This document shows positions 1-8,010 of a stretch of DNA of 8,021 bases, in pieces. Made by a program: the position numbers and the translations under genes. Below the pieces are notes generated by a model. The model saw only the letters and a program-made list of their open reading frames with translations. It was not told where the DNA came from and searched no databases. Position 1 is the stretch's first letter; each line of letters opens with the position of its first letter. This DNA is from a virus (taxonomy: Monodnaviria; Loebvirae; Hofneiviricota; Faserviricetes; Tubulavirales; Inoviridae). The DNA lies in IMG/VR virus record IMGVR_UViG_2695420487_000001, positions 1 through 8,021 of that record; one strand, given 5' to 3'.

Positions 1-135
1 CTGTCGTTCTCAAAATCGGTGGAGCTGCATGACAAGGTCATCGGGCATTATCTGAACATAAAACACTATCAGTAAGTTGGAGTCACTACCCAATTTTTCC
101 ATTGTGGAACTGATAGGGTTCAGTTTCCTCTTATT

Positions 136-161: not shown

Positions 162-584
162 TTACCAGTGATATGAATTTCTTCTGTGCCACCAATAAAG
201 CAGCCCGTATCCGATGATAAGAATTCCGAAAAACATCAACGACATTCCCCAGCCAGTTCCATACCACGAAACCATATCATCGAAAACCAATCCACCCGTT
301 TCACGTACTCCGGCAGCTTCCTTAAGGATTGGTTTGAATACCGGAATCAGAAGGGCAATCGCCAGTGGAGCACCCCAGCGAACAAGACCTGTTTCCATTT
401 TGATCCCGAAAAAGATCCCCGCCCCAACAACAAGCAGCCAGACTATCAGGCTAGGCGCAGTTTCCAGAGCTGTTTGCCATTCAACATCGAAAGTTTTCAT
501 TAGCCAGGCAACAACTGCCAGACAGAAAGCAAATATGCCCACGACAACCAGTTCAACGCCGCTTGTTTCGTTATTTCTACTCAT
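162..584 (-). CDS. Hypothetical small integral membrane protein (about 4 predicted TM helices), 140 aa; phage accessory gene or flanking host gene
   Basis: Intact 140-aa ORF with four long hydrophobic stretches (e.g. VELVVVGIFAFCLAVVAWLM, GWGMSLMFFGILIIGYGLLYWW). AAGGA Shine-Dalgarno-like motif about 8 nt upstream of the ATG on the minus strand. The overlapping opposite-strand ORFs lack such features. No family recognised by eye. Confidence 0.6.
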   Translation of the reverse strand: MSRNNETSGVELVVVGIFAFCLAVVAWLMKTFDVEWQTALETAPSLIVWLLVVGAGIFFGIKMETGLVRWGAPLAIALLIPVFKPILKEAAGVRETGGLVFDDMVSWYGTGWGMSLMFFGILIIGYGLLYWWHRRNSYHW

Positions 585-682: not shown

Positions 683-1129
683 TTACTCTTCGCCTGACAA
701 TGCTTTTTTCATAAACATTTTTGTACTGTAAGTATATGAACTTAATGCAGAAACTTGCCTTGCAAGTGCCAGAATATCTTGCTTCTCCAGTGTTCTGATG
801 TTCCACACGATGAAATTATGCGCGTTCGTGGTTTCTTCATCAGTATATCCGTCCGCAGAAGTTATCAGCTTTCGCTCAGTAGCTTCTTCTTTAACATCAA
901 GAGCATAGCCATAAGCTAAGGTGTTCAAATCTGCGCCAGTAATTTTAGCTATCTGAATTATATCGCTGAATTTAGGTTCAGTTTTGCCGGACGCTATCCT
1001 GACCAGCGTACTTACGCTAATGCCAGTCTTCTCGGCCAGTTCTTCATAAGTCGAGTGTTCCAGAATTGCCTTTTTTATACGTTCTGCTCTCTGTTTGTCC
1101 GCCATAACTTCATGCTCATTGTTGCCCAT
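683..1129 (-). CDS. Helix-turn-helix (XRE / Cro-C1-like) transcriptional regulator, putative prophage repressor, 148 aa
   Basis: Intact ORF. The N-terminal segment EELAEKTGISVSTLVRIASGK has a typical HTH pattern. GGAG lies 7 nt upstream of the ATG at 1129. The gene is transcribed divergently from the replication gene gII, the arrangement seen for repressors of temperate filamentous phages (e.g. CTXphi rstR). The C-terminal roughly 80 residues are unassigned. Confidence 0.8.
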   Translation of the reverse strand: MGNNEHEVMADKQRAERIKKAILEHSTYEELAEKTGISVSTLVRIASGKTEPKFSDIIQIAKITGADLNTLAYGYALDVKEEATERKLITSADGYTDEETTNAHNFIVWNIRTLEKQDILALARQVSALSSYTYSTKMFMKKALSGEE

Positions 1130-2895: not shown

Positions 2896-3138
2896 ATGAA
2901 AGTCATTTCTGTTATTAAATCTAAAATTGCTGTGGCTTCAACCGCACTTTTTGTTTCTGCAAGTTGTTTTGCTGCTGATGGCGCAACGGGTAGCACTGAC
3001 TATGCAGGTCAGGCAATGGATTCACTGCTGACTCAGGCAAACGATCTTATTGCAAAAGTATGGCCTGCTGTTGTCGCTGTCGTTGGTGCGGGTCTTGCCA
3101 TTCGTTTGTTTAAAAAGTTCTCTTCGAAAGCAGTTTAA
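2896..3138 (+). CDS. gVIII: Major coat protein pVIII precursor (signal peptide plus about 54-aa mature coat), IKe-like
   Basis: GGAG 7 nt upstream. Signal peptide ends ...SASCFA. The mature part ADGATGSTDYAGQAMDSLLTQANDLIAKVWPAVVAVVGAGLAIRLFKKFSSKAV closely resembles the IKe/Ff coat (…IRLFKKFSSKAV), with acidic N-terminus, hydrophobic core and basic C-terminus. Confidence 0.9.
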   Translation: MKVISVIKSKIAVASTALFVSASCFAADGATGSTDYAGQAMDSLLTQANDLIAKVWPAVVAVVGAGLAIRLFKKFSSKAV

Positions 3139-3184: not shown

Positions 3185-4428
3185 ATGAAAAGGAAAATAT
3201 TAATTATTTCCGCTATTCTTATTTCTTCTTTTTCACATGCTGATTCATGGGAAAGCATTACTAAATCTACTTTTCAAAGCTCTGCCTATTCTGAAAGTAA
3301 GCAAATAACCAACCAAGATGGCACTAAACAAACTGTTTATTATATTGATGCAGCTATGCAGGCTTCTGCCTGTCAGGGGGCTAAAGACAGTGCTCAGGGT
3401 GTTTTTACTCAGGTTAAACCAACTTATGAGGGAGTATGGCCTAACTCTGAATTCCGTCTTGTGTTTTCTGACGCTTGTACCTACAGCGACTCTCCGGGCC
3501 AGAAAGATAAATACTGGAATTTAACCGCTTATATTATCGGTGATATTCAGCGTTCTATTCCTGATGAAAAACCCTCCGAGCCTACACCTGAAGAAATTTG
3601 TGAAGCTAAACCTCCTGAAGAAGGTGTATTTAATAATGTCTATCTTATGATGGTGATCGTTATATTTATTATAACGGTTGTGAATATGAGGCCACTGGCG
3701 TCATTGTTTGCCAGGGTGATGGCACTGTTTGTGCGGCGACATGGAAGCCTACCGGAACCGTAGCCGATCCTTCAGATAAGCCTTCTTCTCCTGCTGGCGA
3801 TGGTGGGGATACTGGAGGCGGGGATACGGGGGGTGGTGATACTGGAGGAGGTGATACAGGCGGTGGTAACTCAGGTGGCGGTAACTCAGGTGGTAATGGC
3901 TCAAGTATTACCAAAGGAGATATTCAGTCAGCTATTGAAGGTGCTTCACCTAAAATGGCCAGTGAGATTCATGATAAGTTAACAGAAAAAGACACCTCAT
4001 CTGATGATAAAAAATCGGCTGATGAACAGACTAAAAATAATATAAATCGTCTTGGTGACGCTATAAATAACCTTACTCGCGGAGCCGGACGTTTTGCTGA
4101 TCCTTCTGGCGGTGATTCTCGTTATGGGAAAGGGGATTCCGAATTAGACAGTGCTTCAACATTGGCTGAATCCGAATTAGGAATAGCTAAAGATTCTCAT
4201 GGTGCTTTATGGGAAGCATTCCTGAATAAAGGTGCTATGCTCCCTAGTTTACCTAATGGTAATGGTTGTTCTGAACTTGTTATTTTCCCCGGTGAAATTT
4301 ATCAGATTGATATTGAATGCGATAAATTACTTACTATCAAAGATGCGCTTTCATGGATTTTTTATTGCCTTACCTTCTGGTATGTATTTACGTCTTTAAC
4401 CTCATTACTTCGTAAAGGAGGTGAGTAA
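3185..4428 (+). CDS. gIII: Adsorption / minor coat protein pIII, interrupted by a frameshift (N-terminal part in frame 2 to about 3643, remainder in frame 1 from about 3646); pseudogene or sequencing error
   Basis: Signal peptide [19 protein letters not shown]. The span 3185..4428 is 1244 nt, not a multiple of 3. Frame 1 after the shift gives [37 protein letters not shown] (like the fd N1 motif DRYANYEGCLWNATGVVVCTGDETQCYGTW), a Gly-rich linker (GGDTGGG repeats) and a C-terminal domain ending …[36 protein letters not shown] (like fd …CDKINLFRGVFAFLLYVATFMYVFSTFANILRNKES). Frame 1 has no start codon near the shift, so the two parts are one gene. Confidence 0.8.
3796..3900. repeat. Tandem near-identical short repeats encoding the glycine-rich linker of pIII (GGDTGGG x4, GGNSGG x2)
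   Basis: Direct reading: ggtggggatactggaggc / ggggatacggggggt / ggtgatactggagga / ggtgatacaggcggt / ggtaactcaggtggc / ggtaactcaggtggt. The reverse complement produces the spurious proline-rich ORF 3669..3914. Confidence 0.8.
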
Positions 4429-4769
4429 TGCCTTTATTATTAGGTATTCCTGCACTATTGCGTTTTCTTATTGGGCTTGTTCCTTTATTTATTGGCTATG
4501 TGGCAAGCTTCCTCGCACGCCTTGCGACTAAAACAGGATTGATAGCTGTAGCATTAGTTGCATTAATTACAACAACTGTCACTCTCTTAATGCAATATCT
4601 TGCTGAGGTTATGTACAATGGCCTTCCTGCTGATTTTTCACATTTAATTGCATCTGTCTTACCAGACCATTTTCAGGCCTGTGTTAATGTCATTATGATT
4701 ACTCGAATTAGCGTTTTTGTTTTCGATTTAAAACAAAAATTCCTTGATTATGCAAACAAGGTGATTTGA
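4428..4769 (+). CDS. gVI: Minor coat protein pVI, 113 aa
   Basis: [16 protein letters not shown]… resembles M13 pVI MPVLLGIPLLLRFLGF…, and …VFVFDLKQKF resembles …IFIFDVKQKI. Strong AAGGAGGTGA Shine-Dalgarno. The start overlaps the gIII stop and the stop overlaps the gI start. Confidence 0.9.
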   Translation: MPLLLGIPALLRFLIGLVPLFIGYVASFLARLATKTGLIAVALVALITTTVTLLMQYLAEVMYNGLPADFSHLIASVLPDHFQACVNVIMITRISVFVFDLKQKFLDYANKVI

Positions 4770-5864
4770 ATGACGGTTCATGTCGTAACAGGGAAATTAG
4801 GTTCAGGTAAGACACTGGTTAGTGTTGCCAGAATACAGGAAAGACTAGCTAAAGGCTGTCCTGTAGCCACTAATCTAGATATTAAACTACATAATATGCC
4901 CATGGTTGGTCGTTATGCGAAAAAAACACGCGTGATTCGTGTCCCTGACAAACCTTCATTAAATGATCTGCTGGCTATTGGTGTAGGCAATACTTCCTAT
5001 GATGAATCACGTAATGGTCTACTGGTTCTTGATGAATGTGGGACTTGGTTTAATTCCCGTTCGTGGGGGGATAAAGACAGACAGCCAGTTATTGACTGGT
5101 TTTTGCATGCCCGTAAATTAGGCTGGGATATTATTTTTCTGATTCAGGATATTTCGATTATGGACAAGCAAGCACGGCTGGCGCTTGCGGAGCATGTTGT
5201 TTATTGTCGTCGTTCAGATAAGTTAAACATCCCATTTATTGGTTCTTTCATGAATATAATTTCAGGTGCTCGTTTTTCTTTACCAAAGGTTCACTTTGGT
5301 ATTGTTAAATATGGTGACAACGTTAATTCAATAACTGTTGATAAATGGATGTATACCGGAAAGTCATTATATTCCGCCTACAATACAAAACAGGCTTTTA
5401 CTGATAATTATCCGCATGGTGCTTATTCGCTTTTGCCGCCATTTATTACACATGGTCAGTTTTCCGTTAACAAAGGGTTTAATTATTATATGCGCCTCAC
5501 GAAAATTTACTTTCGAAAATCAAACCGATTAATATTAATGCTTTCATTTCTGGCATTGGGGCTTGGACTTGGCTTCTGGCTACAATCTGGTAAGAATGCT
5601 GATGAGATTTCGGCTATTAAATCTGCTCATGCTGAACAGGTGAGGGCAGTAACTCCTGACAGTACCAGCGATTTACCGAGACTATCAATTAATTCCTTCT
5701 CTCAACTTGGTTTTGATGTTTCCGTTACGTTTGTTGATGCTAAGGGTATGAAGTACCAGTATTTTGATTTAATTAAAGATGGTTATTCTGTTGATATTAA
5801 AGATGCCTGCCGAATTGTTATCAGAAAAGGCCGTTATTTACAAAACATCACCTGCCAGGAGTAA
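4770..5864 (+). CDS. gI: Assembly protein pI (Zot-like P-loop ATPase), 364 aa
   Basis: Walker A motif GKLGSGKT at the N-terminus. Long stretches nearly identical to remembered M13 pI (VTGKLGSGKTLVSV, LLVLDECGTWFNSRSW, IDWFLHARKLGWDIIFL, DKQARLALAEHVVYCRR). C-terminal TM segment LILMLSFLALGLGLGFWL. Confidence 0.95.
   Translation: MTVHVVTGKLGSGKTLVSVARIQERLAKGCPVATNLDIKLHNMPMVGRYAKKTRVIRVPDKPSLNDLLAIGVGNTSYDESRNGLLVLDECGTWFNSRSWGDKDRQPVIDWFLHARKLGWDIIFLIQDISIMDKQARLALAEHVVYCRRSDKLNIPFIGSFMNIISGARFSLPKVHFGIVKYGDNVNSITVDKWMYTGKSLYSAYNTKQAFTDNYPHGAYSLLPPFITHGQFSVNKGFNYYMRLTKIYFRKSNRLILMLSFLALGLGLGFWLQSGKNADEISAIKSAHAEQVRAVTPDSTSDLPRLSINSFSQLGFDVSVTFVDAKGMKYQYFDLIKDGYSVDIKDACRIVIRKGRYLQNITCQE
5490..5864 (+). 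CDS. gXI: pXI-like protein from in-frame internal start within gI (codon 241)
   Basis: MRLTKIYFRKS aligns with the M13 pXI start MKLTKIYLKKFS. It is in frame with gI. No obvious Shine-Dalgarno, so expression is inferred only by analogy. Confidence 0.45.
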   Translation: MRLTKIYFRKSNRLILMLSFLALGLGLGFWLQSGKNADEISAIKSAHAEQVRAVTPDSTSDLPRLSINSFSQLGFDVSVTFVDAKGMKYQYFDLIKDGYSVDIKDACRIVIRKGRYLQNITCQE

Positions 5865-5871
5865 TATTATT

Positions 5872-7137
5872 ATGCGTTTATTTTTCATTGCTATCTTATT
5901 CACTTATTCTTTTTGCGTTTCTGCTGAAACTGTTAACCTGAATAATTCATCCGTTCGCTCATTTGTCCAGTGGTATTCATCAAAAACTGGCAAGCCCGTT
6001 ATTGTTAATCCTGATGTTAAAGGAACCGTAACGGTATTTAATGCTGATGTTAATCCCACAAATATTGATAGTTTCTTCAAATCTGTACTGAATGCTAACG
6101 GATTTGTCATGCTTTCGGGTAATCCTGCAGTAGTCTCTTTGCCGTCAAAATTACCATCACAGATGGCGTCAGACCTTGATGATGCTGATATTCGGTCTTA
6201 TGACTCTTTCCCGTCTGAGCCATCTTATCAGCCAGCGCCAGTGGAGTTTACTGTCAGAAATTTTAAGCTGACAAAAGTTCGATCGTCTGATGTTCAGCAA
6301 CTGGTTAAAATTTATCTGGATTCTAATGGCGGGGGTAATGTTGTGGATTATCCTGGCAATAACTCCCTGATTGTTTCCGCACCTGATGAGCTGCTTCCCG
6401 TCCTTTCCGATTTCATCAATTCAGTGGATGTTGCCCGCGATCAGGTTTTGATTCAGTCGCTGATGTTTGAAACCAGTCTGTCGGATGGTGTTGATTTGTC
6501 GTTTGCAGCCGGTTCTGCATCCGGGCATAAAGTAGCAGGGGGCTTTAATACTTCAGCATTGGGTAGCGCATTGTCGACTGCCGGCGGCTCTTTTGGCATT
6601 TTTGATGGTAATGTTCTGGCCGTATCCCTGCGTGCGGTGCAGAGTAACTCCCGGTCTAAGGTGATTTCAACGCCCCGGATTCTTACCCAGTCTGGTCAGA
6701 CAGGCTATATTTCTGTTGGTAAAAATGTACCCTTTATCACGGGTAAAGTTACGGGTGAATCTGCCGGGGTAAATAATCCGTTTCAGACCATTGAACGTCA
6801 TGATGTTGGCGTATCTCTGAAGGTGACGCCTGTTGTTATGGGGAACGGCCAGCTTGTACTTACTATTGATACCCGCGCTGATTCCATCAGCAACGATGAC
6901 CAGGCATCTGATATTATTACGAACCAGCGTCAGATACAGACAACAGTTCAGATTAAGGATGGCCAGACGCTCTTACTTGGTGGGCTGATTGATTCATCAT
7001 CCAGCAATGCTGACCGTTCTGTACCGTTTATCAGTAAAATTCCGGTGATTGGCTGGCTTTTCAGGAGTAAAGCTGACAGTAATGAGCAACGCATTATGTA
7101 TGTTCTGCTGACCGCTCATATTATTCGCGCGCTTTGA
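5872..7137 (+). CDS. gIV: Outer-membrane secretin pIV (phage assembly/export channel), 421 aa
   Basis: Start chosen at MRLFFIAILFTYSFCVSA (signal peptide) with AGGAG about 10 nt upstream; the track ORF start at 5779 lies inside gI. Secretin blocks closely match remembered M13 pIV: VIVNPDVKGTVTVF, SGQTGYISVGKNVPFITGKVTGESAGVNNPFQTIERHDVGVSLKV, DGQTLLLGGL, VPFISKIPVIGWLF. Confidence 0.95.
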   Translation: MRLFFIAILFTYSFCVSAETVNLNNSSVRSFVQWYSSKTGKPVIVNPDVKGTVTVFNADVNPTNIDSFFKSVLNANGFVMLSGNPAVVSLPSKLPSQMASDLDDADIRSYDSFPSEPSYQPAPVEFTVRNFKLTKVRSSDVQQLVKIYLDSNGGGNVVDYPGNNSLIVSAPDELLPVLSDFINSVDVARDQVLIQSLMFETSLSDGVDLSFAAGSASGHKVAGGFNTSALGSALSTAGGSFGIFDGNVLAVSLRAVQSNSRSKVISTPRILTQSGQTGYISVGKNVPFITGKVTGESAGVNNPFQTIERHDVGVSLKVTPVVMGNGQLVLTIDTRADSISNDDQASDIITNQRQIQTTVQIKDGQTLLLGGLIDSSSSNADRSVPFISKIPVIGWLFRSKADSNEQRIMYVLLTAHIIRAL

Positions 7138-7287: not shown

Positions 7288-7536
7288 ATGTCTGTAAAAA
7301 GCAGGGTGCGCGATCGACTCCCCAGTGGTCGCATGAAGTCTTACCGTCGTGTTAGTTCACATTTTACCAGTTGTTCCAGGTGGTTTGATAAATCACCGTC
7401 CTGGTATCGCAATATGATGATGACCCGGCCAGAGCGCCGTGAAGTCAGAAAGCTTCTTAATCAGGTCTTGCGTGGTCGTGATGCTGACGGTATCGCATTT
7501 CCTGTCAGTAACAAGCCGTTTGCATGGTGGTGGTGA
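7288..7536 (+). CDS. Hypothetical small basic Arg/Trp-rich protein, 82 aa (accessory ORF between gIV and the dif-like site)
   Basis: Intact ORF with GAGG about 7 nt upstream of the ATG. High Arg/Ser/Trp content and the ending …FAWWW; no family recognised. It lies in a segment that looks GC-richer than the phage body. Coding status not verified. Confidence 0.4.
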   Translation: MSVKSRVRDRLPSGRMKSYRRVSSHFTSCSRWFDKSPSWYRNMMMTRPERREVRKLLNQVLRGRDADGIAFPVSNKPFAWWW

Positions 7537-7916: not shown

Positions 7917-8010
7917 GGTGCGCATAATGTACGACTCGTTATGTTGAAAAGGCCGCTGCGAAAATCGAATCCCGCAGCGGCCTCTTTAGCATAACGTCAT
8001 TGTGCGAACC
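7917..8010. other. dif-like XerC/XerD recombination site pair in inverted orientation forming a roughly 94-nt imperfect palindrome (candidate attP / integration junction of an IMEX-type filamentous phage)
   Basis: 7917-7927 GGTGCGCATAA equals the E. coli dif XerC arm 11/11. It is followed by tgtacgactcg and by TTATGTTGAAA (7939-7949; dif XerD arm TTATGTTAAAT, 9/11). An inverted copy lies at 7984-8010: ctttagcataa (9/11 to the reverse-complemented XerD arm), then ttgtgcgaacc (9/11 to the reverse-complemented XerC arm). Between them is a perfect 10-bp GC stem. Confidence 0.65.
7951..7982. other. Central GC-rich stem-loop of the palindrome (ggccgctgcg / cgcagcggcc, 12-nt loop); could also act as a bidirectional terminator
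   Basis: 7951-7960 and 7973-7982 are exact reverse complements. The stem is followed by tcttt on the + strand and ttttcaac on the minus strand. Confidence 0.5.

Follow-up and report, generated by a model that had tools for sequence, protein, structure and literature searches.

The window, by which we mean the whole stretch of DNA analysed here with its 8,021 nucleotides, is an almost complete unit of an E. coli filamentous (inovirus) prophage. The features below are taken from the ORF listing and from annotated relatives, and the phage dif-like site comes from a comparison of junctions.

1-90 (+): right end of an IS1 element
162-584 (minus): 140-aa ORF
683-1129 (minus): HTH protein, 148 aa
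1301-2353: gII, replication protein
2365-2682: gV, ssDNA-binding protein
about 2685-2771: gVII
2896-3138: gVIII, major coat protein
3185-4428 (+): gIII, attachment protein pIII/G3P, broken
4428-4769: gVI
4770-5864: gI/Zot
5872-7137: gIV, secretin
7288-7536 (+): 82-aa ORF
7917-7949 (+): phage dif-like site

According to the ORF listing, the frames of gII, gV, gVIII, gVI, gI and gIV are still open in the window. The continuous ORF of about 400-430 codons that is expected for an IKe-type G3P/pIII is absent, the gene being split over two frames. An 81-aa proline-rich ORF at 3669-3914 (-) simply results from reading the opposite strand of the glycine-rich linker repeats in gIII and should not be counted as a gene.

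Gene III and the position of the break

Gene III starts with the ATG at 3185 in frame 2 and stops with the TAG at 3761-3763, which gives a product of 192 aa. Frame 1 is closed by a TAA at 3634-3636 and is then open from 3637 to the TAA at 4426-4428 (263 codons). This ORF layout agrees with the initial annotation, made from the sequence alone, which had put the first 153 codons in frame 2 and the remainder in frame 1. The overlap of the two frames, which it gave as 3637..3766, does start at 3637, while its end has to be moved to 3763. The parts of the gene are listed below with the evidence for each; the assignment of the IKe-type domains rests on sequence matches to PDB entries and on Pfam.

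3185..3763 (+): 5' fragment, the 192-aa ORF, with signal peptide, N2, 24 aa of N1 and a 39-aa tail (ORF listing)
3185..3241 (+): signal peptide, aa 1-19 (hydrophobic window; the 4eo0 alignment begins at aa 20)
3242..3568 (+): N2 pilus-binding domain, intact, aa 20-128 (Pfam: PF21443; PDB: 4eo0)
3572..3643 (+): first part of N1 (TolA-binding), aa 130-153, holding C139 (PDB: 4eo1)
3643..3644 (+): deletion site
3644..3760 (+): out-of-frame tail of 39 residues, hydrophobic and then basic (translation)
3646..4428 (+): 3' part of the gene in frame 1 (alignment to the f1 pIII C domain, 8b3o)
to 3768 (+): rest of N1 with C166, C176 and C183 (frame 1; 4eo1 alignment)
3790-3906 (+): Gly-rich linker (frame 1)
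3907-4425 (+): C-terminal domain (frame 1; alignment to 8b3o)
4345-4410 (+): membrane anchor within the C-terminal domain (frame 1)

The G3P pilus-binding family (Pfam: PF21443) matches aa 22-125 with an E-value of 1.9e-25, and the N2 domain of IKe G3P (PDB: 4eo0) matches aa 20-128 with an E-value of 1e-27. In the latter alignment D20, the mature end, pairs with residue 2 of the crystallised domain. An N-terminal domain had been reported earlier only in general terms; it is present and intact, and these matches identify it as the pilus-binding N2 of the IKe type. For N1, the TolA-binding domain of IKe (PDB: 4eo1) matches aa 130-195 with an E-value of 1.1e-25. The break had been placed at the junction between the N-terminal domain and N1, which is incorrect, as it lies after codon 153 and thereby 24 residues inside N1. 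Falling behind Y153, it parts C139 from C166, C176 and C183, and the four-Cys domain of N1 is not intact. Phage_Coat_A (Pfam: PF05357) covers aa 135-176 in the intact relative and has no match in either fragment of the window. The alignment to f1 pIII (8b3o) reaches aa 411 in the protein of this intact relative, which equals the one encoded by the window after repair.

The out-of-frame tail is hydrophobic and then basic, as previously described. Its first 15 residues score as very hydrophobic by Kyte-Doolittle, peaking at 3.16 over aa 152-166. Export of the truncated N2 fragment, with this tail tethering it to the membrane, would be possible.

We aligned the window gene with three intact homologues, whose genes are 99.9%, 92% and 83% identical to it. 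The alignment contains a single gap of 1 nt, located in the window copy, where one T of a TT pair is lost between 3643 and 3644. The intact homologues read GTC TAT TCT TAT GAT and the window reads GTC TAT -CT TAT GAT, with codon 154 left as 'CT' at 3644-3645. The gene has 1244 nt in the window versus 1245 nt in intact relatives, of which E. coli SCPM-O-B-12142 is the closest complete genome. The initial annotation had proposed such an alignment and had expected a loss of 1 nt around 3644-3646, which is within 1-3 nt of the aligned position. Adding back one T gives an ORF of 414 codons, in line with the 414-415 codons that had been foreseen, and its protein is 100% identical to WP_053902684.1, the 414-aa protein annotated as 'attachment protein' in SCPM-O-B-12142. 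Going by this alignment, we class gene III of the window as a pseudogene of the IKe-type G3P/pIII family.

Carriers, the tandem array and the intact relative

The exact 192-aa product is found on 82 contigs, for which the only organism named is E. coli, and the index of the public collection lists it in 108 blocks. The downstream 157-aa ORF is found on 67 contigs, and a one-residue variant of it on 10 more. These carrier contigs come from NCBI assemblies, ENA and Logan assemblies of independent SRA runs. The carriers differ by private SNPs at positions 1644, 2959, 4126, 5010, 5478 and 6856, and since different carriers have different ones they are separate isolates. In the complete genome GCA_977064715.1, on a contig of 4.87 Mb, the deletion is present in both tandem prophage copies. 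An exact search with the 37-mer across the deletion gave 0 matches in the species-representative genomes, a set that holds one genome per species and is therefore uninformative here. We found no literature naming the carrier assemblies (JHRT01, PQPI and the GCA numbers).

The prophage occupies the chromosomal dif site, with hipBA on one side and yneL/ydeT-ydeP on the other. Its right junction is a perfect dif (GGTGCGCATAATGTATATTATGTTAAAT), and the left and internal junctions are the phage dif-like site. This site, GGTGCGCATAA-TGTACGACTCG-TTATGTTGAAA, forms the junction between tandem prophage copies, and the crossover with the chromosomal dif lies within GGTGCGCATAATGTA (7917-7931). Its XerC arm is perfect and its putative XerD-like arm has 2 mismatches. 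The two arms are 11 nt apart versus 6 nt in E. coli dif, which is an unusually long spacer. Even when up to 3 mismatches were allowed, a search of the window for the canonical E. coli dif gave 0 matches, the spacer of the phage site being 5 nt longer.

The window ends in the internal type of junction, so that it represents 'copy 1' of a tandem array, with one base (7861) different from copy 1 of GCA_977064715.1. That genome has two tandem units of 9853 bp (4877-14729 and 14730 onward of the extracted locus L010), which are 100% identical and both carry IS1 together with the gIII deletion.

The target duplication of IS1 is CAATTTTT, 8 bp long and located at 91-98. The element is flanked by the 140-aa ORF and by a minus-strand gene for a 369-aa protein that lies beyond the window. 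It is inserted 36 bp upstream of this gene's start and probably separates the gene from its operon. Every carrier whose left side is visible has IS1 together with the frameshift. On contig CYBP01000067 of GCA_001285805.1 the left IS1 is joined to cybB, gapC and aldA and not to the 369-aa gene and hipA. This arrangement would mean either that IS1 has mediated a rearrangement or deletion of about 100 kb, or that the contig was joined wrongly through the IS1 repeat.

In SCPM-O-B-12142 the same tandem pair of prophages occupies this site (hipA|dif|yneL-ydeT); IS1 is absent there and gIII is intact in both copies. The adjoining host sequence matches at 100% identity for about 4 kb to the left and about 5.8 kb to the right. 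Between 91 and 8021 the window is 99.96% identical to SCPM-O-B-12142 over 7.9 kb, the only differences being substitutions at 3068 and 7861 and the missing T. The same tandem site, the identical flanks and the intact, IS1-free state of this relative indicate a recent, in situ origin of both the frameshift and the IS1 insertion, within one E. coli lineage in which the intact prophage was already present. As both tandem copies are identical mutants, the array must have been homogenised or rebuilt after both mutations. This may have come about, for instance, by gene conversion, by contraction of the array with later re-expansion, or by a replicating mutant genome integrating again.

The six coding SNPs of the carriers are all nonsynonymous (gII G115E, gVIII A22T, gIII-C G>R, gI R81C, gI F237V and gIV V329L). 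Six out of six suggests relaxed constraint on the whole prophage, with n=6 being too few to tell neutrality from chance (probability of about 0.18 under the neutral expectation).

Relation to IKe, I2-2 and UPΦ viruses

Among characterised phages, IKe, I2-2 and the Erwinia PEar phages come closest, with about 70% nucleotide identity over parts of gIII. The G3P of IKe and I2-2 (Lineavirus) has its domains in the same order as here, namely signal peptide, N2, N1, Gly-rich linker and C-terminal domain. Neither IKe nor I2-2 integrates, and their gene III is intact, whereas the phage of the window is a dif-integrated prophage in which gene III is broken after codon 153.

UPΦ viruses are relatives of IKe and I2-2 that are found in tandem at dif in E. 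coli, Salmonella, Klebsiella, Citrobacter and Yersinia (Shapiro & Putonti 2020, PMC7307601). With UPΦ901 and the ECONIH2 prophage this phage shares the integration at dif as tandem repeats. The order of the core genes II, V, VII, IX, VIII, III, VI, I and IV is also common to UPΦ and this phage, as is the reverse 140-aa ORF, which is 98% identical. Compared with the UPΦ prophage of ECONIH2, the core has about 84% nucleotide identity and its proteins are 82-96% identical. The two UPΦ-specific genes downstream of gIV, searched by tblastn with the two ECONIH2 ORFs, have no match in the full phage unit. Conversely, the HTH gene (683-1129, minus) and the 82-aa ORF (7288-7536) belong to this phage and have no counterpart in ECONIH2. 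ECONIH2 has other accessory genes at these two positions. The 369-aa gene outside the window is likewise an accessory gene of this phage, unlike in UPΦ. Accessory modules flanking the conserved core appear to be swapped between lineages, and the phage is best called a sister lineage related to UPΦ and not a UPΦ virus in the strict sense.

A broken gIII in UPΦ-related prophages has precedent. The UPΦ prophage of E. coli GCA_001519645 carries a premature stop codon in gene III and was judged by the authors to be non-viable unless complemented (PMC7307601, section 4.1). It was a single assembly mentioned in passing, whereas the present allele occurs in both tandem copies and on no fewer than 82 contigs. 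Gene III nulls of the Ff phages such as f1d3, in which losing the pIII C domain blocks termination and release (PMC10175506), serve as the functional model for the lesion of the window. They are engineered deletions in an episomal phage, whereas here we have a spontaneous frameshift in a chromosomal prophage.

Many human ExPEC genomes (matches H23-H40) have only the first 600-700 nt of gIII, coding for N2 and N1, in common with the window (region 3185-3785), with 83-86% identity. The linker and C-terminal half of gIII have no match in these genomes. This pattern indicates that the receptor-binding part is exchanged as a module among different filamentous prophages.

Interpretation of the two-frame gene III

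We consider it very probable that gene III of this dif-integrated tandem IKe/I2-2-like (UPΦ-related) prophage is a pseudogene that arose through a genuine, inherited deletion of one T. The initial annotation had left the choice between a defective prophage and an assembly error, and the former is the reading supported by the same lesion across independently assembled contigs. One T would have been deleted between 3643 and 3644 and then passed on vertically. Translation from the ATG at 3185 would give the 192 aa made up of the signal peptide, the whole N2, 24 residues of N1 and the 39-residue nonsense tail. It would lack the remainder of N1 as well as the Gly-rich linker and the C-terminal domain, which caps and releases the virion. 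The frame-1 segment has neither a start before 3955 nor a signal peptide. The deletion and the IS1 insertion would both be recent events in one E. coli lineage with an intact prophage beforehand, and the tandem array would later have been homogenised or formed anew, bringing both lesions into both copies.

In Ff phages, pIII and pVI terminate the assembly and release the filament, and f1 without pIII is about 10^6-fold less infective (PMC10175506). With both gIII copies broken, virion release and transmission should fail unless another phage supplies the attachment protein. As the other core genes are open, replication and filament extrusion may still start. By analogy with the Ff phages, the prophage may thus replicate and build filaments, and unless pIII is provided in trans there would be no termination or release of filaments and no infectious particles.

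The lesion is ordinary prophage decay, a frameshift pseudogene in a known kind of prophage, and does not challenge current understanding. It is notable only for its spread through many isolates and both tandem copies and for the near-isogenic intact counterpart. For annotation, gene III on at least 82 contigs should be described as a frameshifted pseudogene and not as two 'uncharacterised proteins'. Shedding of infectious filamentous phage should not be assumed for carrier strains. The pairing with SCPM-O-B-12142 provides a natural comparison for the effects of pIII loss on a dif-integrated inovirus and its host.

It is improbable, though conceivable, that the truncation is kept because it is useful, either with the secreted or membrane-tethered N2 fragment as a pilus-binding decoy against conjugative pili or related phages, or as a replicating tandem prophage that does not shed and sits in a successful clone. 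In the latter case the loss of pIII could stop a costly virion release while other prophage functions are kept. N-terminal pIII fragments of Ff phages alter host envelope and pilus functions, and here neither N2 nor the signal peptide is damaged, the tail is strongly hydrophobic and both tandem copies are homogenised to the mutant form. The broken allele is also found on 82 contigs versus 38 for the exact intact parent, either because a successful clone was sampled more often or because the lesion confers some benefit. Clonal sampling is able to explain this excess, however, and the TolA-blocking N1 domain is destroyed. Furthermore, there are no independent recurrent gene III truncations in the same 90% clusters, where the others are singleton partials at contig ends, and the accompanying IS1 insertion and the later, exclusively nonsynonymous coding SNPs look like decay.

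Full-length pIII could in principle be produced by programmed -1 ribosomal frameshifting or transcriptional slippage, as recoding is used by some phage genes and a -1 shift anywhere in 3637-3763 would rebuild an almost normal protein. The shift would be confined to this stretch since frame 1 is closed by the TAA at 3634-3636. We regard such recoding as highly unlikely. The absence of a slippery heptamer, noted before, holds over the whole upstream ORF, with no X XXY YYZ in the zero frame in 3185-3763, and there is no homopolymer of 6 or more near the break. In a model of pseudoknot-free structures the fold of the downstream RNA appears unremarkable, with a minimum free energy of -43 kcal/mol versus -38.4 ± 3.9 for shuffled sequences (z = -1.18), and 25 of the 200 shuffled RNAs fold as well. 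The same two-frame arrangement might have been expected in related intact copies, but all homologues compared are single ORFs, including the tandem pair of SCPM-O-B-12142, APEC E19057 and ECONIH2, and the closest is identical after repair. In the homologue clusters, with 167 and 682 members, the proteins measure about 401-426 aa except for partials at contig ends. With all relatives examined having a single ORF, the two-frame state is a derived lesion and not a conserved design.

We give equally little credence to two working polypeptides, of which the N-terminal one would bind the receptor and the C-terminal one, translated from the ATG at 3955, would act in capping. Gene callers do predict the 157-aa ORF at 3955-4428, and about 93 C-terminal residues of f1 pIII are enough to terminate assembly (PMC10175506). 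This ATG is located 192 nt past the upstream stop, however, and has no well-spaced Shine-Dalgarno sequence, the AAGGTG ending 12 nt upstream. Frame 1 has no ATG, GTG or TTG before 3955, and a product from there would not have the signal peptide for correct membrane insertion. Without an earlier start, a good Shine-Dalgarno sequence or a signal peptide, an independently functional C-terminal piece is unlikely, and even if made it would give capped, non-infectious particles without a receptor-binding part.

Finally, a sequencing or assembly error hiding an intact gene III of 414 codons would have in its favour that single-base indels are the commonest type of assembly error and that a nearly identical intact copy of the prophage exists, but it is effectively excluded by the same truncated protein on 82 contigs from various submitters and independently assembled SRA runs, by the private SNPs that differ between the carrier loci, by the deletion in both tandem copies of a complete genome and by the nature of the site, which is a TT dinucleotide and not a long homopolymer.
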